The notes under the pieces are model-generated. The model did no database searches. It worked only from the letters and a program-made list of their open reading frames with translations, and had not been told where the DNA came from. Position numbers and translations under genes: made by a program. From NCBI GenBank assembly GCA_045634705.1, contig JAZRAU010000061.1:1-42289 (forward strand): DNA of 42,289 nt, written 5' to 3'. Of this stretch, positions 30,807 to 42,289 are shown piece by piece; position 1 is the first letter of the stretch, and every line of letters begins with the position of its first letter. Origin of the DNA: Eubacteriales bacterium (GTDB lineage Bacteria > Bacillota > Clostridia > Oscillospirales > CAG-272).

Positions 30807-33320
30807 TTACTGTTTGCCGGGGCCCGCGGTGTCGGAGCCGTCGCCCACAAGGCCAAGGCGGCGCGCGGCGTCCTCGCGCATCTTGTATTTGAGGACCTTT
30901 CCCGCCGCGTTCATTGGGAAGCTGTCAACAAATTCGATGTACTTCGGTACCTTATGCCGCGCCATGCTGGCACGGATATAGGCCGACATCTCGTCAACCG
31001 TAATGCTGCCTGGCTCCTTGAGGATGATGCACGCCATGATCTCCTCGCCGTACCGCTTGTCGGGAACGCCGATGACCTGAACGTCCTTGGTCATGGGGTG
31101 GGTGTAGATGAATTCCTCGATCTCCTTCGGGTAGATGTTCTCGCCGCCGCGGATGATCATGTCCTTAAGGCGCCCTGTGATGCGGTAGTTGCCGTCCTCA
31201 TCGCGCGAGGCCAGGTCCCCCGAGTGGGGCCAGCCATCCGCGTCGATCGTACCCTTGGTGGCACCGGGCATCTTGTAATAGCCCTTCATGGTGTTGTAGC
31301 CCTTGGCGCAGAACTCGCCGTTCACGCCGGGGCCGACCTCCTCACCCGTCTCAGGGTCGATGACCTTGCACATCACGTGCGGGAAGGCATAGCCGACCGT
31401 CTCGGTACGCACGTCAAGGGGATCGGTCCACGAGCTCATCGTGTTGCCGGGGGCGCACTCGGTCTGGCCGTAAACGCTGACAATGCCCGTCATGTTCATC
31501 TCCGAGGGATCGGCGGCGCGGCGCATCAGCTCGGGCGGACACCCTGCCCCCGCCATGATGCCCGTCCGCATATGCGAGAAGTCGGTCTTGCGGTAGTTCG
31601 GGTGGTTGAACATCGCAATGAACATGGTGGGAACGCCGTTAAAGCAGGTGATCTTCTCCTCGTTAATGCAGGCCAGCGAGGACTTGGCGGAGAAGTAGGG
31701 CATCGGGCACATGGTGGTGCCGTGCGTCATCGAGGACGTCATGGAAAGCGTCATACCGAAGCAGTGGAACATCGGGACCTGGATCATCATGCGGTCGGCC
31801 GTGGAAAGCCCCATGCGGTCGCCGATGCACTTGCCGTTGTTGACCACGTTGTAGTGGGTCAGCATGACCCCCTTCGGGAAGCCCGTGGTGCCCGAGGTGT
31901 ACTGCATATTGCAAACGTCGGAGGGGCGGACGGCCGCGGCCATACGCGCCACCTCGGCGCGGCTGACGAGAGACGAGCGCGCCATGGCCTCCTCAAAGGA
32001 GAGACAGCCCTCCTGACGGAAGCCCACCGTAATGACGTTGCGGAGGAAGGGAAGCTTCTTGCAATGCAAGGGCTCACCCGGCACCGTATCGCGGATCTCG
32101 GGGCAGAGGGTATTGATGATCTCACGGTAGTTCGAGTCAAGACAGCTTTCGATCATCACGAGGGTATGCGTGTCCGACTGACGGAGCAGGTACTCCGCCT
32201 CGTGGATCTTGTAGGCGGTGTTGACCGTCACCAGAACGGCGCCCAGCTTCACCGTCGCCCAGAAGGTGATGTACCATGCGGGCAGGTTCGTGGCCCACAC
32301 AGCCACCTTGGAGCCGGCCTTGACGCCCAGCGAGACGAGCGCGCGCGCAAAGCGGTCCACATCCTCGCGGAATTCGGCGTAGGTGCGGGTGTAATCGAGC
32401 GTCGTGTACTTGAAGCAGTATTGGTCGGGGAACTCGTCCGCCACGCGGTCCAGCACCTGGGAGAAGGTCAGATCGATCAGCTCGTCCTTCTTAAAGACGT
32501 ACTGTCCCGTGCCGTCGTGGTTAAAATAGAGCGTCTTCTTCATATCCCTTGTCGAATGGAAGCGGGACATGTAGTTGACAAAATGCGGAAAAATGATCTC
32601 GGGGTCGTCAAGGCCTGTGAGCCACTCGGGCTTCCATTCCAGCGAGATAAAGGCATCGTAGTTTACCGAGGACAGCGCCCGCACCACGTCGTCGATCGGC
32701 ATCGTACCCTCGCCGATCAGCTGGTAGGCCCCCGCATCGTCCGAGTCGCGCAGATGCACGTGTGCGACGTAAGCGCCAAGGTTCTTAATGGTGTCATCGG
32801 CCGACTCGCCGTGGTCACGGTACGGGTGGTGGACGTCCCACAAAGCGCCGAGGCTGTCGCTTGCAAAGCGATCAAGCATCGCGCGCAGGCGTGCGGTGTC
32901 GGCATAGATGCCGCTCGTTTTCAACAGCACGCTGACCCCCGCTGCCTCCGCCGCGGGGAGCAGGGCGGTGAGGGCGGCCTCCACAGCCCCCTCATCCTCG
33001 TGCAGGGCGCACACCGTCACGTATGGCACGCGCGTGTTGCGCGCCACCTCGATAAGCCCCAGCGCCGTCGCTGTGGCCTCGGCATCGGCCGAGATGTCCA
33101 GCGAGGTGTCAAAGCAGGGGATCGAAAGCCCTCTCTCGCGCAGCTCGCGCGCGGTGGCGGCGGTGTTGTACTTATGGAAGGGGCCGCCGCGCTCCATCAT
33201 CGGATCAAAGCGGGGAAGGTTGTAGACCTCAACGCCCGCAAAGCCCATGGCAACGGCGGTGTCCAGCATCTCGGAAAAGGAGAGGCCTGGCCACCCTCTG
33301 GTAGAAAAGGAAAGCTTCAT
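30807..33320 (-). CDS. Fusion of a xylose-isomerase-like TIM barrel and an AMP-forming acyl-CoA synthetase
   Basis: About 255 N-terminal aa with GFAGVE, WDVHH, HVHLRD, GEG, SLEW; C-terminal ANL motifs YTSGTTGFPKG, YGQTE, SGD, GRLKDMIIRGGENIYP, GKVLK. Confidence 0.88.
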   Translation of the reverse strand: MKLSFSTRGWPGLSFSEMLDTAVAMGFAGVEVYNLPRFDPMMERGGPFHKYNTAATARELRERGLSIPCFDTSLDISADAEATATALGLIEVARNTRVPYVTVCALHEDEGAVEAALTALLPAAEAAGVSVLLKTSGIYADTARLRAMLDRFASDSLGALWDVHHPYRDHGESADDTIKNLGAYVAHVHLRDSDDAGAYQLIGEGTMPIDDVVRALSSVNYDAFISLEWKPEWLTGLDDPEIIFPHFVNYMSRFHSTRDMKKTLYFNHDGTGQYVFKKDELIDLTFSQVLDRVADEFPDQYCFKYTTLDYTRTYAEFREDVDRFARALVSLGVKAGSKVAVWATNLPAWYITFWATVKLGAVLVTVNTAYKIHEAEYLLRQSDTHTLVMIESCLDSNYREIINTLCPEIRDTVPGEPLHCKKLPFLRNVITVGFRQEGCLSFEEAMARSSLVSRAEVARMAAAVRPSDVCNMQYTSGTTGFPKGVMLTHYNVVNNGKCIGDRMGLSTADRMMIQVPMFHCFGMTLSMTSSMTHGTTMCPMPYFSAKSSLACINEEKITCFNGVPTMFIAMFNHPNYRKTDFSHMRTGIMAGAGCPPELMRRAADPSEMNMTGIVSVYGQTECAPGNTMSSWTDPLDVRTETVGYAFPHVMCKVIDPETGEEVGPGVNGEFCAKGYNTMKGYYKMPGATKGTIDADGWPHSGDLASRDEDGNYRITGRLKDMIIRGGENIYPKEIEEFIYTHPMTKDVQVIGVPDKRYGEEIMACIILKEPGSITVDEMSAYIRASMARHKVPKYIEFVDSFPMNAAGKVLKYKMREDAARRLGLVGDGSDTAGPGKQ

Positions 33321-34726
33321 TCTACTTCTTCCTCATAAACGATTTTGTTGAGCGCGGAAAGGTAGGCCTCAATGCCCGCCCCCACGATGTCGGTGGAAAT
33401 GCCGCGGCCCGAATAGACCTTGCCGCCCGAACGGAGCTTGACAACGGTCTGTCCCATGGCCTCGCGGCCCTCGGTCACGGCCTGCAGCTGGAAGTCGTCC
33501 AGCTCGTAATGACAGCCCGTGATCTTCTCAATGGCCTGAAACGCCGCGTCGATCGAGCCGTCACCGATGTAAACACCCTCCGCGGTCACACCCCTCTTCG
33601 AGAGCTTGATGTGGGCCGTGGCGGAAATGGTATTGCCCGAGGTGATGACGTAGGTATCCAGCTTATAGGTCGAGGGCACCTGCATGGCGGAGGAGGCCAC
33701 AATGGCGTCCAGCTCCTTAAGGGTTACCCTCTCCTTTTTCTCGGCGATCTGACGGAAGGCGGCAAAGACGCTGGCAGTGTCCTCGGCCGAGAGATCGTAG
33801 CCAAGCTTCTCGGCGGCGGCGCTCACAGCGGCCGCATCGTCATGCGCGGTCAGAAAGATGTCGGCTCCCTCATGCTCGGAGAGGGGCGCCGCGGCGGTCT
33901 TGCCCTTGCCCGCTTGGCAGAATCTTGTGATCTGATCAATGATGCGGGAGAGCTGCGTCGTGCGGATCGTCGTGGCGACTTCCAGCGCCTCCCCCTTGGC
34001 AGACAGAACGCGTGCCACGTTGGAGAGCGAGGCACAGGATATTGGATGCGCCGCCGCGCGGAGCTGGCCCGCGCCTGCGGTCAGGGCGGCGATCGCACAG
34101 GCGTCCGCCATGGCAATGGTGTTGGCGGTGGCAACGCCCAGCGTGACCTCCGAGAGGGCAGGGAGGACGGCGTACTGCGCCCTGATGAAGTCGGCAAGCT
34201 CGGTGGGGAGCATGGTGCCCGCCGTATCGCAAAGCGTGACGGTGGCGGCCCCCGCCGCGATCGCGGCCGCTATAACCTCGGAAAGGAAGGCGGGCTCACT
34301 GCGTGTGGCGTCCTCGGCGATGAATTCCACGTCGGAGCAGAGGGCGCGCGCGGCGGCCACCGTTTCGCGGACGGCCTCGATCATCGCCTCGGGCTTCTTG
34401 TGAAGGAGGTACTCCACCCCCACGGTGCTGGTCGGCACCGTGACCTGCAAGCGCGGGTGACGGGCCTTCGAGAGGGCGTTCCACGTTCTCTCAACGCTCT
34501 CTCGGTTTAGCTCCACGGGAACGGCCACTGTGCTCTCATTCACCGCCGCGGCGATCGACTTGATCTGCAAAGCGTCGGTGCGGGCGTCCTTGATGCCCTC
34601 AAGCTCAATGATGTCGACCCCCAACCTGTCAAGAAGCTTCGAGAGCTCGATCCTCTCCTTAAAGGACAGGCGGAACTCCTCCGAGGTCTCCTTCATGGTC
34701 GCATCGCTGATCCGTATCGGCTTCAT
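33317..34726 (-). CDS. LeuA (2-isopropylmalate synthase)-like protein with a degenerate catalytic site and intact C-terminal regulatory domain
   Basis: LDRLGVDIIE, VEFIAEDATRS, CDTAG and C-terminal GDGSIDA, STDIV..AYLSALN are retained; RDGEQ and HxH are absent. Confidence 0.85.
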   Translation of the reverse strand: MKPIRISDATMKETSEEFRLSFKERIELSKLLDRLGVDIIELEGIKDARTDALQIKSIAAAVNESTVAVPVELNRESVERTWNALSKARHPRLQVTVPTSTVGVEYLLHKKPEAMIEAVRETVAAARALCSDVEFIAEDATRSEPAFLSEVIAAAIAAGAATVTLCDTAGTMLPTELADFIRAQYAVLPALSEVTLGVATANTIAMADACAIAALTAGAGQLRAAAHPISCASLSNVARVLSAKGEALEVATTIRTTQLSRIIDQITRFCQAGKGKTAAAPLSEHEGADIFLTAHDDAAAVSAAAEKLGYDLSAEDTASVFAAFRQIAEKKERVTLKELDAIVASSAMQVPSTYKLDTYVITSGNTISATAHIKLSKRGVTAEGVYIGDGSIDAAFQAIEKITGCHYELDDFQLQAVTEGREAMGQTVVKLRSGGKVYSGRGISTDIVGAGIEAYLSALNKIVYEEEVE

Positions 34727-34756
34727 AACTGTCGTCTCCTTCGTATCTACTGAATT

Positions 34757-42165: not shown

Positions 42166-42168
42166 GCT

Positions 42169-42289
42169 ATGGCAGTCGTATTTGAAAAACCCAAGGCTCT
42201 GACCGATACTGTATTCCACTATTGCCCCGGCTGCCCCCACGGCATCATCCACCGTCTTGTGGCGGAGGTCATGGATGAGCTGGGCATCG
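42169..42289 (+). CDS. 2-oxoacid:ferredoxin oxidoreductase beta (TPP-binding) subunit, 5' part (truncated)
   Basis: [38 protein letters not shown] motif; directly follows the alpha subunit. Confidence 0.85.

Follow-up and report, generated by a model that had tools for sequence, protein, structure and literature searches.

We describe a T-box-controlled gene cluster at positions 30807-42289 of contig JAZRAU010000061.1 (C61), whose entire length of 42,289 nucleotides constitutes the window analyzed here. This locus quite probably serves a salvage route that draws isovalerate, 2-methylbutyrate and isobutyrate from the gut and converts them to leucine, isoleucine and valine. An earlier note on this DNA had described the clustering of three AMP-forming ligases, a LeuA-like gene, a gene for a P-loop protein and subunits of a 2-oxoacid:ferredoxin oxidoreductase of the VOR type, all of which are indeed present, and had proposed the same route. 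Its interpretation is now supported by the regulatory logic of the locus, its synteny, the loss of biosynthetic genes and the likeness of its ligases to characterized enzymes.

In the proposed pathway, each of the three ligases would convert one of the acids to its CoA thioester at the expense of ATP. The oxidoreductase (VorDBAC) would then use reduced ferredoxin to carboxylate the acyl-CoA reductively, yielding a 2-oxo acid, from which a branched-chain aminotransferase (BCAT), encoded on contig C43 in this genome and within the operon in many relatives, would form the amino acid. The T-box leaders, by reading the matching uncharged tRNA, would gate the committed, ATP-consuming ligase step. 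Specifically, a Leu T-box would control the LeuA-like gene and a ligase fused to a TIM barrel (TIM-ligase), an Ile T-box would control the first of two further ligases (paralogue 1), and in many relatives a Val T-box would control the second (paralogue 2) together with VOR. In the window, paralogue 2, the P-loop gene and VOR would be expressed by read-through from the Ile leader and from a consensus promoter of their own. We infer the substrates of the ligases and the reductive direction of VOR from the lines of evidence set out below.

Organization and conservation of the locus

The source genome comprises 1.41 Mb in 101 contigs, with a G+C content of 58.7% and a completeness of 96.2%. Genes were called with Pfam and NCBIfam models and T-boxes with the Rfam model RF00230 (gathering score 93 bits). 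The locus consists of two arms with divergent leaders:

30807-33320, minus strand: TIM barrel/acyl-CoA-ligase fusion, 837 residues (AP_endonuc_2, AMP-binding and AMP-binding_C domains)
33317-34726, minus strand: LeuA-like gene, 469 residues (Pfam HMGL-like and LeuA_dimer domains)
34787-35026, minus strand: Leu T-box leader (RF00230, 106.8 bits; specifier CUC)
35218-35445 (Rfam match), plus strand: Ile T-box leader (RF00230, 93.1 bits; specifier AUC)
35503-37764, plus strand: paralogue 1, 753 residues (HTH_3, Cupin_2, AMP-binding and AMP-binding_C domains)
37865-40165, plus strand: paralogue 2, 766 residues, of the same architecture, with a likely start at ATG 37898
40175-40843, plus strand: P-loop NTPase, 222 residues (Walker A motif GHYGSGKT)
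40887-41093, plus strand: VorD, the delta subunit, 68 residues with two 4Fe-4S motifs
41104-42165, plus strand: VorB, the alpha subunit (NF005507, 551.5 bits against a cut-off of 399), with its start codon revised to 41104
42169-42289, plus strand: first 40 codons of VorA, the beta subunit, cut by the contig end

VorD had been missing from the gene list of the earlier note. The C-terminus of VorA and the gamma subunit, VorC, are encoded on the minus strand of contig C3 (2339 bp), such that all four subunits, delta, alpha, beta and gamma, are accounted for and the enzyme is of the four-subunit type. Contig C37 was also considered as the continuation of the window and rejected, as its end encodes IorA rather than VorA.

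Conservation of the locus was assessed in two samples, namely 301 genomes spread over the order, from which 20 loci were taken, and a scan with paralogue 1, which yielded 80 loci from public metagenome-assembled genomes among 451 stretches encoding a relative. All tallies of synteny and leaders given below cover the 101 loci that comprise the window and these 100 related ones. The genomes of the relatives are assigned to Oscillospiraceae, Faecousia, Clostridia or Eubacteriales and come from the hindgut of sheep, goat, deer, yak and buffalo. The hindguts of ruminants and other animals are rich in branched short-chain acids. The gene order of the window recurs in related Oscillospirales loci. 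The commonest arrangement (33 times) is that of the window itself, with TIM-ligase and LeuA-like genes in one arm and paralogue 1, paralogue 2, P-loop, VorD, VorB, VorA and VorC in the other; the same order with a BCAT gene after VorC was found 17 times.

Overall, BCAT lies within the locus in 26 of the 101 cases and in seven of the 20 order-wide loci. The earlier note had remarked that no aminotransferase is visible in the window, and the sole Aminotran_4 gene of the genome does lie elsewhere, on contig C43, where it is identified as a BCAT by NF009897 (459.6 bits against a cut-off of 307). Matches to the fused TIM-ligase were obtained in 178 of the 301 genomes of the order, with a full-length fusion, defined by a best E value of 0 or at most 1e-280, in 113.

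Specifier codons and predicted transcriptional control

The genome carries seven T-boxes, two in the window and five elsewhere. The latter precede serS (UCC), thrS (ACC), valS (GUC), trpB (UGG) and a gene for a PaaK-like protein (UUC) and set the register in which a specifier is read, thereby identifying the codons of the window leaders as CUC (Leu) and AUC (Ile). A gene for tRNA-Leu(GAG) is present in the genome. Both window leaders cover positions 1-219 of the RF00230 model with scores above or at the gathering score, contain the antiterminator bulge UGGUACC and diverge, one leading into the minus-strand arm and the other into the plus-strand arm.

The assignment of ligases to amino acids is borne out by the relatives. 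LeuA-like genes are preceded by a leader with a Leu codon in 68 of 82 cases (CUC in 26, CUG in 30 and CUU in 12); the remaining leaders were unparsed (8) or gave another reading or a mis-parsed one (6, including one CCC). Leaders directly 5' of the TIM-ligase, read by eye, show CUC in six of six cases. Paralogue-1 genes follow an AUC T-box in 74 of 84 cases, with no motif in eight, an unclear reading in two and a Val codon in none. The earlier note had also suggested that paralogue 2 may activate isobutyrate, and a role in valine supply is borne out by a GUN codon (GUC, GUA or GUG) in all 26 paralogue-2 leaders that were readable by eye. By a stricter pattern, 20 of 74 paralogue-2 genes have a Val T-box and none has an Ile T-box, while 50, like the gene of the window, have no T-box. 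Some relatives possess three T-boxes within one locus, and no ligase type was seen behind the codon of another in any of the 101 loci. Shifts between synonymous codons that retain the amino acid, as observed here, are expected if the meaning of the codon is under selection.

Scans and inspection by eye revealed the following transcription signals:

30772-30803: terminator-like hairpin of 14 pairs in the stretch separating upp from the 3' end of the TIM-ligase gene
34761-34795, minus strand: terminator of the Leu T-box, a hairpin with a U-run whose imperfect stem was read by eye and for which the scan gave no call
35048-35076, minus strand: promoter-like TTGACA-17-TTAAAT of the Leu leader, read by eye, which fails the scan rule at position 2 of the -10 box
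35173-35201, plus strand: promoter-like TTGACA-17-TAAAAT of the Ile leader, found by the scan (11/12 positions, with TG)
35436-35461, plus strand: terminator hairpin of the Ile leader followed by a T-run, called by the scan and extending the leader to 35218-35461
37802-37831, plus strand: sigma-70 consensus promoter TTGACA-18-TATAAT (12/12 positions), between the paralogues

The hairpin at 30772-30803 probably ends the Leu arm. The 133-nt gap between the two paralogues contained no terminator detectable by the scan, and 35 of the 57 short gaps examined in relatives contain a motif resembling its internal promoter. Given this promoter, the Ile T-box is not the only control element acting on paralogue 2, the P-loop gene and VOR. 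The notion of two arms governed by Leu- and Ile-specific T-boxes, as put forward in the earlier note, thus holds for the leaders themselves but has to be amended for these downstream genes, which are also served by the promoter at 37802-37831. Such an arrangement would suit an enzyme that is common to all three routes. Members of this lineage thus seem to express the shared enzymes with no Val T-box involved and to keep the Leu and Ile ligases gated.

The -10 box of the internal promoter overlaps a near-palindrome, TATAAT-GTAT-ATTATA (14/16 positions; window 37826-37841), which could be an operator for the helix-turn-helix (HTH) and cupin domains of the paralogues. Among the relatives, it shows no clear conservation.

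Missing de novo genes and probable direction of the route

The earlier note had called for a search of the genome for the ilv and leu genes. In the 96.2%-complete assembly, the search for ilvC returned only a 23.5-bit match and that for ilvD no match at all. Acetolactate synthase was likewise not found, because the TPP_enzyme_C domain occurs only in the alpha subunit of an indolepyruvate:ferredoxin oxidoreductase (IOR) and in a pyruvate:ferredoxin oxidoreductase. The search for leuCD yielded a sole aconitase-family gene, which encodes aconitate hydratase (954 bits against a cut-off of 612), and that for leuB a sole candidate resembling isocitrate dehydrogenase (IDH) and adjoining the aconitate hydratase gene; neither leuCD nor leuB was thus found. 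These two genes form part of a segment (C6:6571-11728) that also contains, as judged by eye, open reading frames (ORFs) similar to homocitrate synthase or Re-citrate synthase and to GntR, with the IDH-like dehydrogenase scoring below all cut-offs; the segment probably represents a route to 2-oxoglutarate. Searches for uptake systems of branched-chain amino acids likewise returned neither BrnQ above its cut-off nor a binding protein of the LivJ type, so that no other route to these amino acids is visible in the genome.

The same tendency is apparent across the order. Among the 113 genomes with a full-length fused ligase, 90 have no ilvD, whereas ilvD is present in 118 of the 188 others, corresponding to an odds ratio of 0.15 among genomes that are not independent because of kinship. 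These tallies were made from hand-transferred lists, and seven matches to ilvD (E values of about 1e-141 to 1e-157) were left out as paralogues.

T-boxes turn genes on in response to uncharged cognate tRNA, and hence under shortage of the amino acid. AMP-forming ligases act in the direction from acid to CoA ester and are not known to conserve ATP in the reverse reaction. The combination of such ligases with induction by uncharged tRNA points to a flow from acid to amino acid. The view that the locus marks supply rather than breakdown, already advanced in the earlier note, is strengthened by the missing de novo genes, by the presence of BCAT in the genome and by its inclusion in part of the related loci. 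In favour of the route, a VorB orthologue with 61-65% identity is encoded elsewhere in five of five genomes with a stand-alone unit of Leu T-box and TIM-ligase.

Proposed substrates of the ligases and alternative explanations

Paralogues 1 and 2 share 60% identity and fall into separate clades of 84 and 74 rows (SH-like approximate likelihood-ratio test [SH-aLRT] support of 100). The ligase domain of paralogue 1 matches the structure PDB 3ETC with an E value of 1.3e-183. The corresponding report describes 2-methylbutyrate as the preferred substrate of this enzyme, within a broad range of C3 to C8 acids (PMC10455477), in agreement with the substrate that the earlier note had suggested for the Ile arm. 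We propose paralogue 1 as a candidate 2-methylbutyrate-CoA ligase, paralogue 2 as a candidate isobutyrate-CoA ligase and the TIM-ligase as a candidate isovalerate-CoA ligase.

Even if the T-box logic is right, at least one of the ligases may use a different acid, a possibility that we consider unlikely. Candidates would be isocaproate, 2-hydroxyisocaproate or 3-methylcrotonate for the TIM-ligase and propionate, leading to 2-oxobutyrate, for paralogue 1. The TIM-ligase leaves room for such a deviation, since it has no close solved or characterized relative (the best PDB matches, at about 1e-76, are a fatty-acyl-CoA synthase and a feruloyl-CoA synthetase) and contains an extra, unexplained TIM domain; the range of the 3ETC enzyme, as given in the report cited above, would accommodate one as well. 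However, to make isoleucine from propionate the cell would require IlvC, IlvD and acetolactate synthase, none of which was found, and the TIM domain does not conserve its metal ligands, arguing against an added catalytic step. Moreover, a single step each of VOR and BCAT would turn the three proposed acids, and no others, directly into the amino acids named by the T-boxes.

A second alternative, which appears distinctly improbable as a full explanation, holds that the ligases supply branched acyl-CoA primers for the synthesis of branched-chain fatty acids, and hence of membrane lipids, in the manner of Staphylococcus aureus MbcS, with the T-boxes sensing a shortage of the amino acids from which these primers are normally derived. 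MbcS (NF047394) is indeed the best NCBIfam model of both paralogues, and two reports ascribe to it a role in lipid synthesis from 2-methylbutyrate and isobutyrate (PMC10026030, PMC11167679). However, both paralogues miss the cut-off of this model. In addition, the ligases are co-transcribed with VOR and, in the 26 loci mentioned above, with BCAT, neither of which is needed to make lipid primers, and a genome without the de novo route requires another source of the amino acids. Nevertheless, acyl-CoAs could serve both ends, so that a function in lipid synthesis may add to amino acid salvage instead of replacing it.

The reverse pathway, in which BCAT and an oxidative VOR would break down branched-chain amino acids to acyl-CoAs, draws on the reversibility of VOR-type enzymes, which are catabolic in peptide fermenters, and on the occurrence of the P-loop/VorD/VorB unit in other contexts across the phylum, but it is highly improbable given that T-boxes act at amino acid scarcity, that AMP-forming ligases drive the formation of CoA esters and that the module is enriched in genomes without ilvD.

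Several observations weigh against the salvage of branched acids as proposed here. With regard to the enzymes, neither paralogue reaches the equivalog cut-off of MbcS (420.1 and 419.1 bits against 850), so that they are classed as working like MbcS and not as members of its family, and the TIM-ligase stays below the cut-off of its nearest subfamily, the fatty-acid CoA ligases PRK12583 (NF009233; 644.7 bits against 832). Because no curated equivalog cut-off is reached, the substrates of the ligases rest on the T-box logic and the likeness to 3ETC. The middle of VorA is not contained in the assembly. The Leu arm has no VOR or BCAT of its own, and leucine limitation alone would thus depend on VOR produced from other promoters. 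With regard to regulation, the genome has no Val T-box in front of paralogue 2, such that the valine assignment comes from the relatives, and a search for tRNA genes found no tRNA-Ile in the assembly. The Leu specifier of the window is followed by C and not by a purine (34931-34945, minus strand); its close relatives, loci L077-L085, likewise have C after CUC or CUU, and more distant ones have A or G. In locus L075, the T-box in front of the LeuA-like gene (12425-12669, minus strand) reads GAA CCC A at the specifier position, where CCC specifies Pro. The locus closest to it, L076, has CUG there, and L075 is the one clear outlier. With regard to gene content, 23 of the 113 fused-ligase genomes also have ilvD, indicating that the module is not strictly a replacement for the de novo pathway.

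Putative accessory proteins

Apart from ligases and VOR, the locus encodes proteins and domains to which we can assign putative roles only, namely the LeuA-like protein, the TIM domain, the cupin domains and the P-loop protein. The earlier note had listed a LeuA-like gene, and such a gene is present, with HMGL-like and LeuA_dimer domains, but its product is not a working synthase. In an alignment with 3RMJ, LRDGEQ is replaced by MK--ET and HCHND by ATANT, and neither the metal-binding RDGEQ Asp nor the HxH ligands are retained in any of the 34 homologues compared. The protein also stays far below the LeuA cut-offs (264.3 against 598.7 bits for TIGR00973 and 300.5 against 532 for NF002086). A function as a leucine-pathway enzyme was rejected on the grounds of the lost ligands and of the missing leuB and leuCD genes. 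At the same time, 33 of the 51 invariant columns of the family fall into the last 129 residues, which form the C-terminal regulatory domain. The LeuA-like protein is thus probably regulatory and not an enzyme. Because the regulatory domain is kept and the stop codon of its gene overlaps the start of the TIM-ligase gene by 4 nt, our best guess is that it acts as the leucine-sensing partner of this ligase. Relatives of the protein (P0026, P0039 and P0118) are named '2-isopropylmalate synthase' at JGI and 'hypothetical protein' at NCBI, and the former name could wrongly credit the respective genomes with a step of the leucine pathway.

The TIM-ligase combines a TIM barrel of the xylose-isomerase-like type (residues ~20-232), which scores 70.7 bits against PF01261 (gathering score 31.1), with an AMP-forming ligase (residues ~280-823). 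Its metal sites, which we take to be Glu, Asp, His and Glu, were placed by alignment with MJ1311. The window protein has a Lys at the Glu of 'ETSG', several orthologues show WNMSAAY, HVQF and SLVW at other sites, and only D192 is invariant among the five sites compared in 41 sequences. This variation makes an added catalytic step unlikely, and the domain is more likely structural or regulatory than catalytic. A profile search of the PDB with the TIM alignment returned generic family matches only.

The P-loop protein was not recovered as a member of the ParA/MinD type, whose deviant Walker A motif reads KGGxGK[ST]. Its Walker A sequence differs from this motif, and its weak matches to the ParA/CbiA families remain below threshold (24.9 bits for PF10609, with 27.1 needed, and 23.6 bits for PF01656, with 25.4 needed). 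It resembles solved structures over the P-loop only. A profile search of the PDB with the P-loop alignment gave generic family matches only. Among 78 sequences of the family, a DxDIVNPYFR motif is conserved and no Cys is; the latter finding led us to reject an Fe-S ATPase similar to NifH or Mrp. Across the phylum, 401 genomes were sampled and 241 of them encode a relative; in 26 of 29 fetched loci (L158-L186) the gene lies directly 5' of VorD, mostly with VorB next. The P-loop gene therefore accompanies VOR throughout the phylum. Such a partner is not mentioned in a review of these enzymes from 2026, whose text has no occurrence of either 'P-loop' or 'ATPase'.

It is tempting to speculate that these components provide a second tier of control, with each ligase being subject to a T-box and, in addition, to a non-catalytic amino-acid-sensing module that stops the ATP-consuming activation once enough product is available. 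In the case of leucine, this module might be the inactive LeuA paralogue, which keeps only its regulatory domain under strong selection and would dock on the ligase's degenerate TIM barrel. The fused cupin domains might act as sensors for isoleucine and valine, and an ACT protein might do so for phenylalanine, behind a T-box-controlled PaaK-like ligase (see below). In this scheme, VOR-type enzymes of the Bacillota could depend on the P-loop NTPase for their assembly or activation. We regard this joint proposal as tentative and, as a whole, rather doubtful.

Related loci elsewhere in the genome

Outside the window, a Phe (UUC) T-box at C28:34067-36152 (loci L006 and L024) is followed by genes for a PaaK-like phenylacetate-CoA ligase, which misses the cut-off of 646 with 518.9 bits, and for an ACT-domain protein of 143 residues. 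This unit is an aromatic counterpart of the branched-chain module. An IOR locus extends over two contig ends (C21:10537-13039 and C37:14638-19974) and encodes, in this order, a PaaK-like protein, IorA, divided between C21 (N-terminal part) and C37 (C-terminal part), IorB, another PaaK-like protein and an ACT protein, followed by ORFs that were named by eye as amidohydrolase-like and aminotransferase-like. At C32:3578-5102 (locus L009), trpB (TIGR00263, 529.8 bits against 392) is the only gene behind a Trp (UGG) T-box, an arrangement that hints at the salvage of indole. Collectively, this looks like a small genome rebuilding several amino acids from the fermentation products of its neighbours. 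Within the window, genes for a uracil permease and a uracil phosphoribosyltransferase (28591-30616) are located just upstream of the locus, and an S10-Clostridia ribosomal leader is found at 4178-4255 (43.5 bits).

Implications

Branched short-chain 'isoacids' have been known for about sixty years as growth factors of gut and rumen anaerobes. As far as the literature was searched, the genes behind this requirement have not been laid out for Clostridia. The locus described here provides a candidate for each step, and its three T-box specificities predict the substrate of each ligase. Given that the fused ligase is common (113 of 301 genomes, mostly without ilvD), auxotrophies for branched-chain amino acids called from the genomes of gut Oscillospirales, and the metabolic models derived from them, may be wrong. 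The locus also draws attention to a mis-annotated pseudoenzyme and an unstudied P-loop partner of VOR.

Comparison with known systems

The carboxylation of branched acids is known from classical labelling work on rumen bacteria and methanogens. Their reductive route to leucine, isoleucine and valine involves the same chemistry as proposed here, from acid via acyl-CoA and 2-oxo acid to amino acid, and the same kind of habitat. The formation of leucine by carboxylation of isovalerate is also mentioned in a further report (PMC7356843). However, this earlier work was physiological, whereas the present analysis points to a defined locus with one ligase per amino acid, T-box control and proposed accessory proteins. 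A full-text literature search, which covered few subscription journals, returned no paper describing this locus or linking T-boxes to it. Thus, the chemistry is old, but no description of the locus, of its gating by three codons or of its degenerate accessory domains seems to exist in the literature searched.

In the T-box-controlled ilv-leu operons of the Bacillota, uncharged tRNA opens supply genes by antitermination. The window has leaders of the same tRNA-reading type, both of which are recognized by RF00230. They differ from those of the ilv-leu operons in that they control salvage ligases and a ferredoxin oxidoreductase instead of de novo enzymes, and in that up to three leaders with three specificities are united in one locus.

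The paralogues belong to the same ligase family as MacsMa of Methanosarcina acetivorans (3ETC) and MbcS of S. aureus, which act on small branched acids according to the reports cited above. Unlike these enzymes, they bear an N-terminal HTH and cupin module of about 230 residues and occur together with VOR and BCAT. The LeuA-like protein shares with LeuA (3RMJ) the HMGL-like barrel, the C-terminal LeuA_dimer domain and the EDATR and DT.G motifs, but it is devoid of the RDGEQ Asp and the HxH ligands and misses all NCBIfam cut-offs. Finally, the oxidoreductase resembles known VOR enzymes in its four subunits, with VorB scoring above its cut-off, and is set apart by its proposed reductive function and by the P-loop NTPase gene that precedes it.

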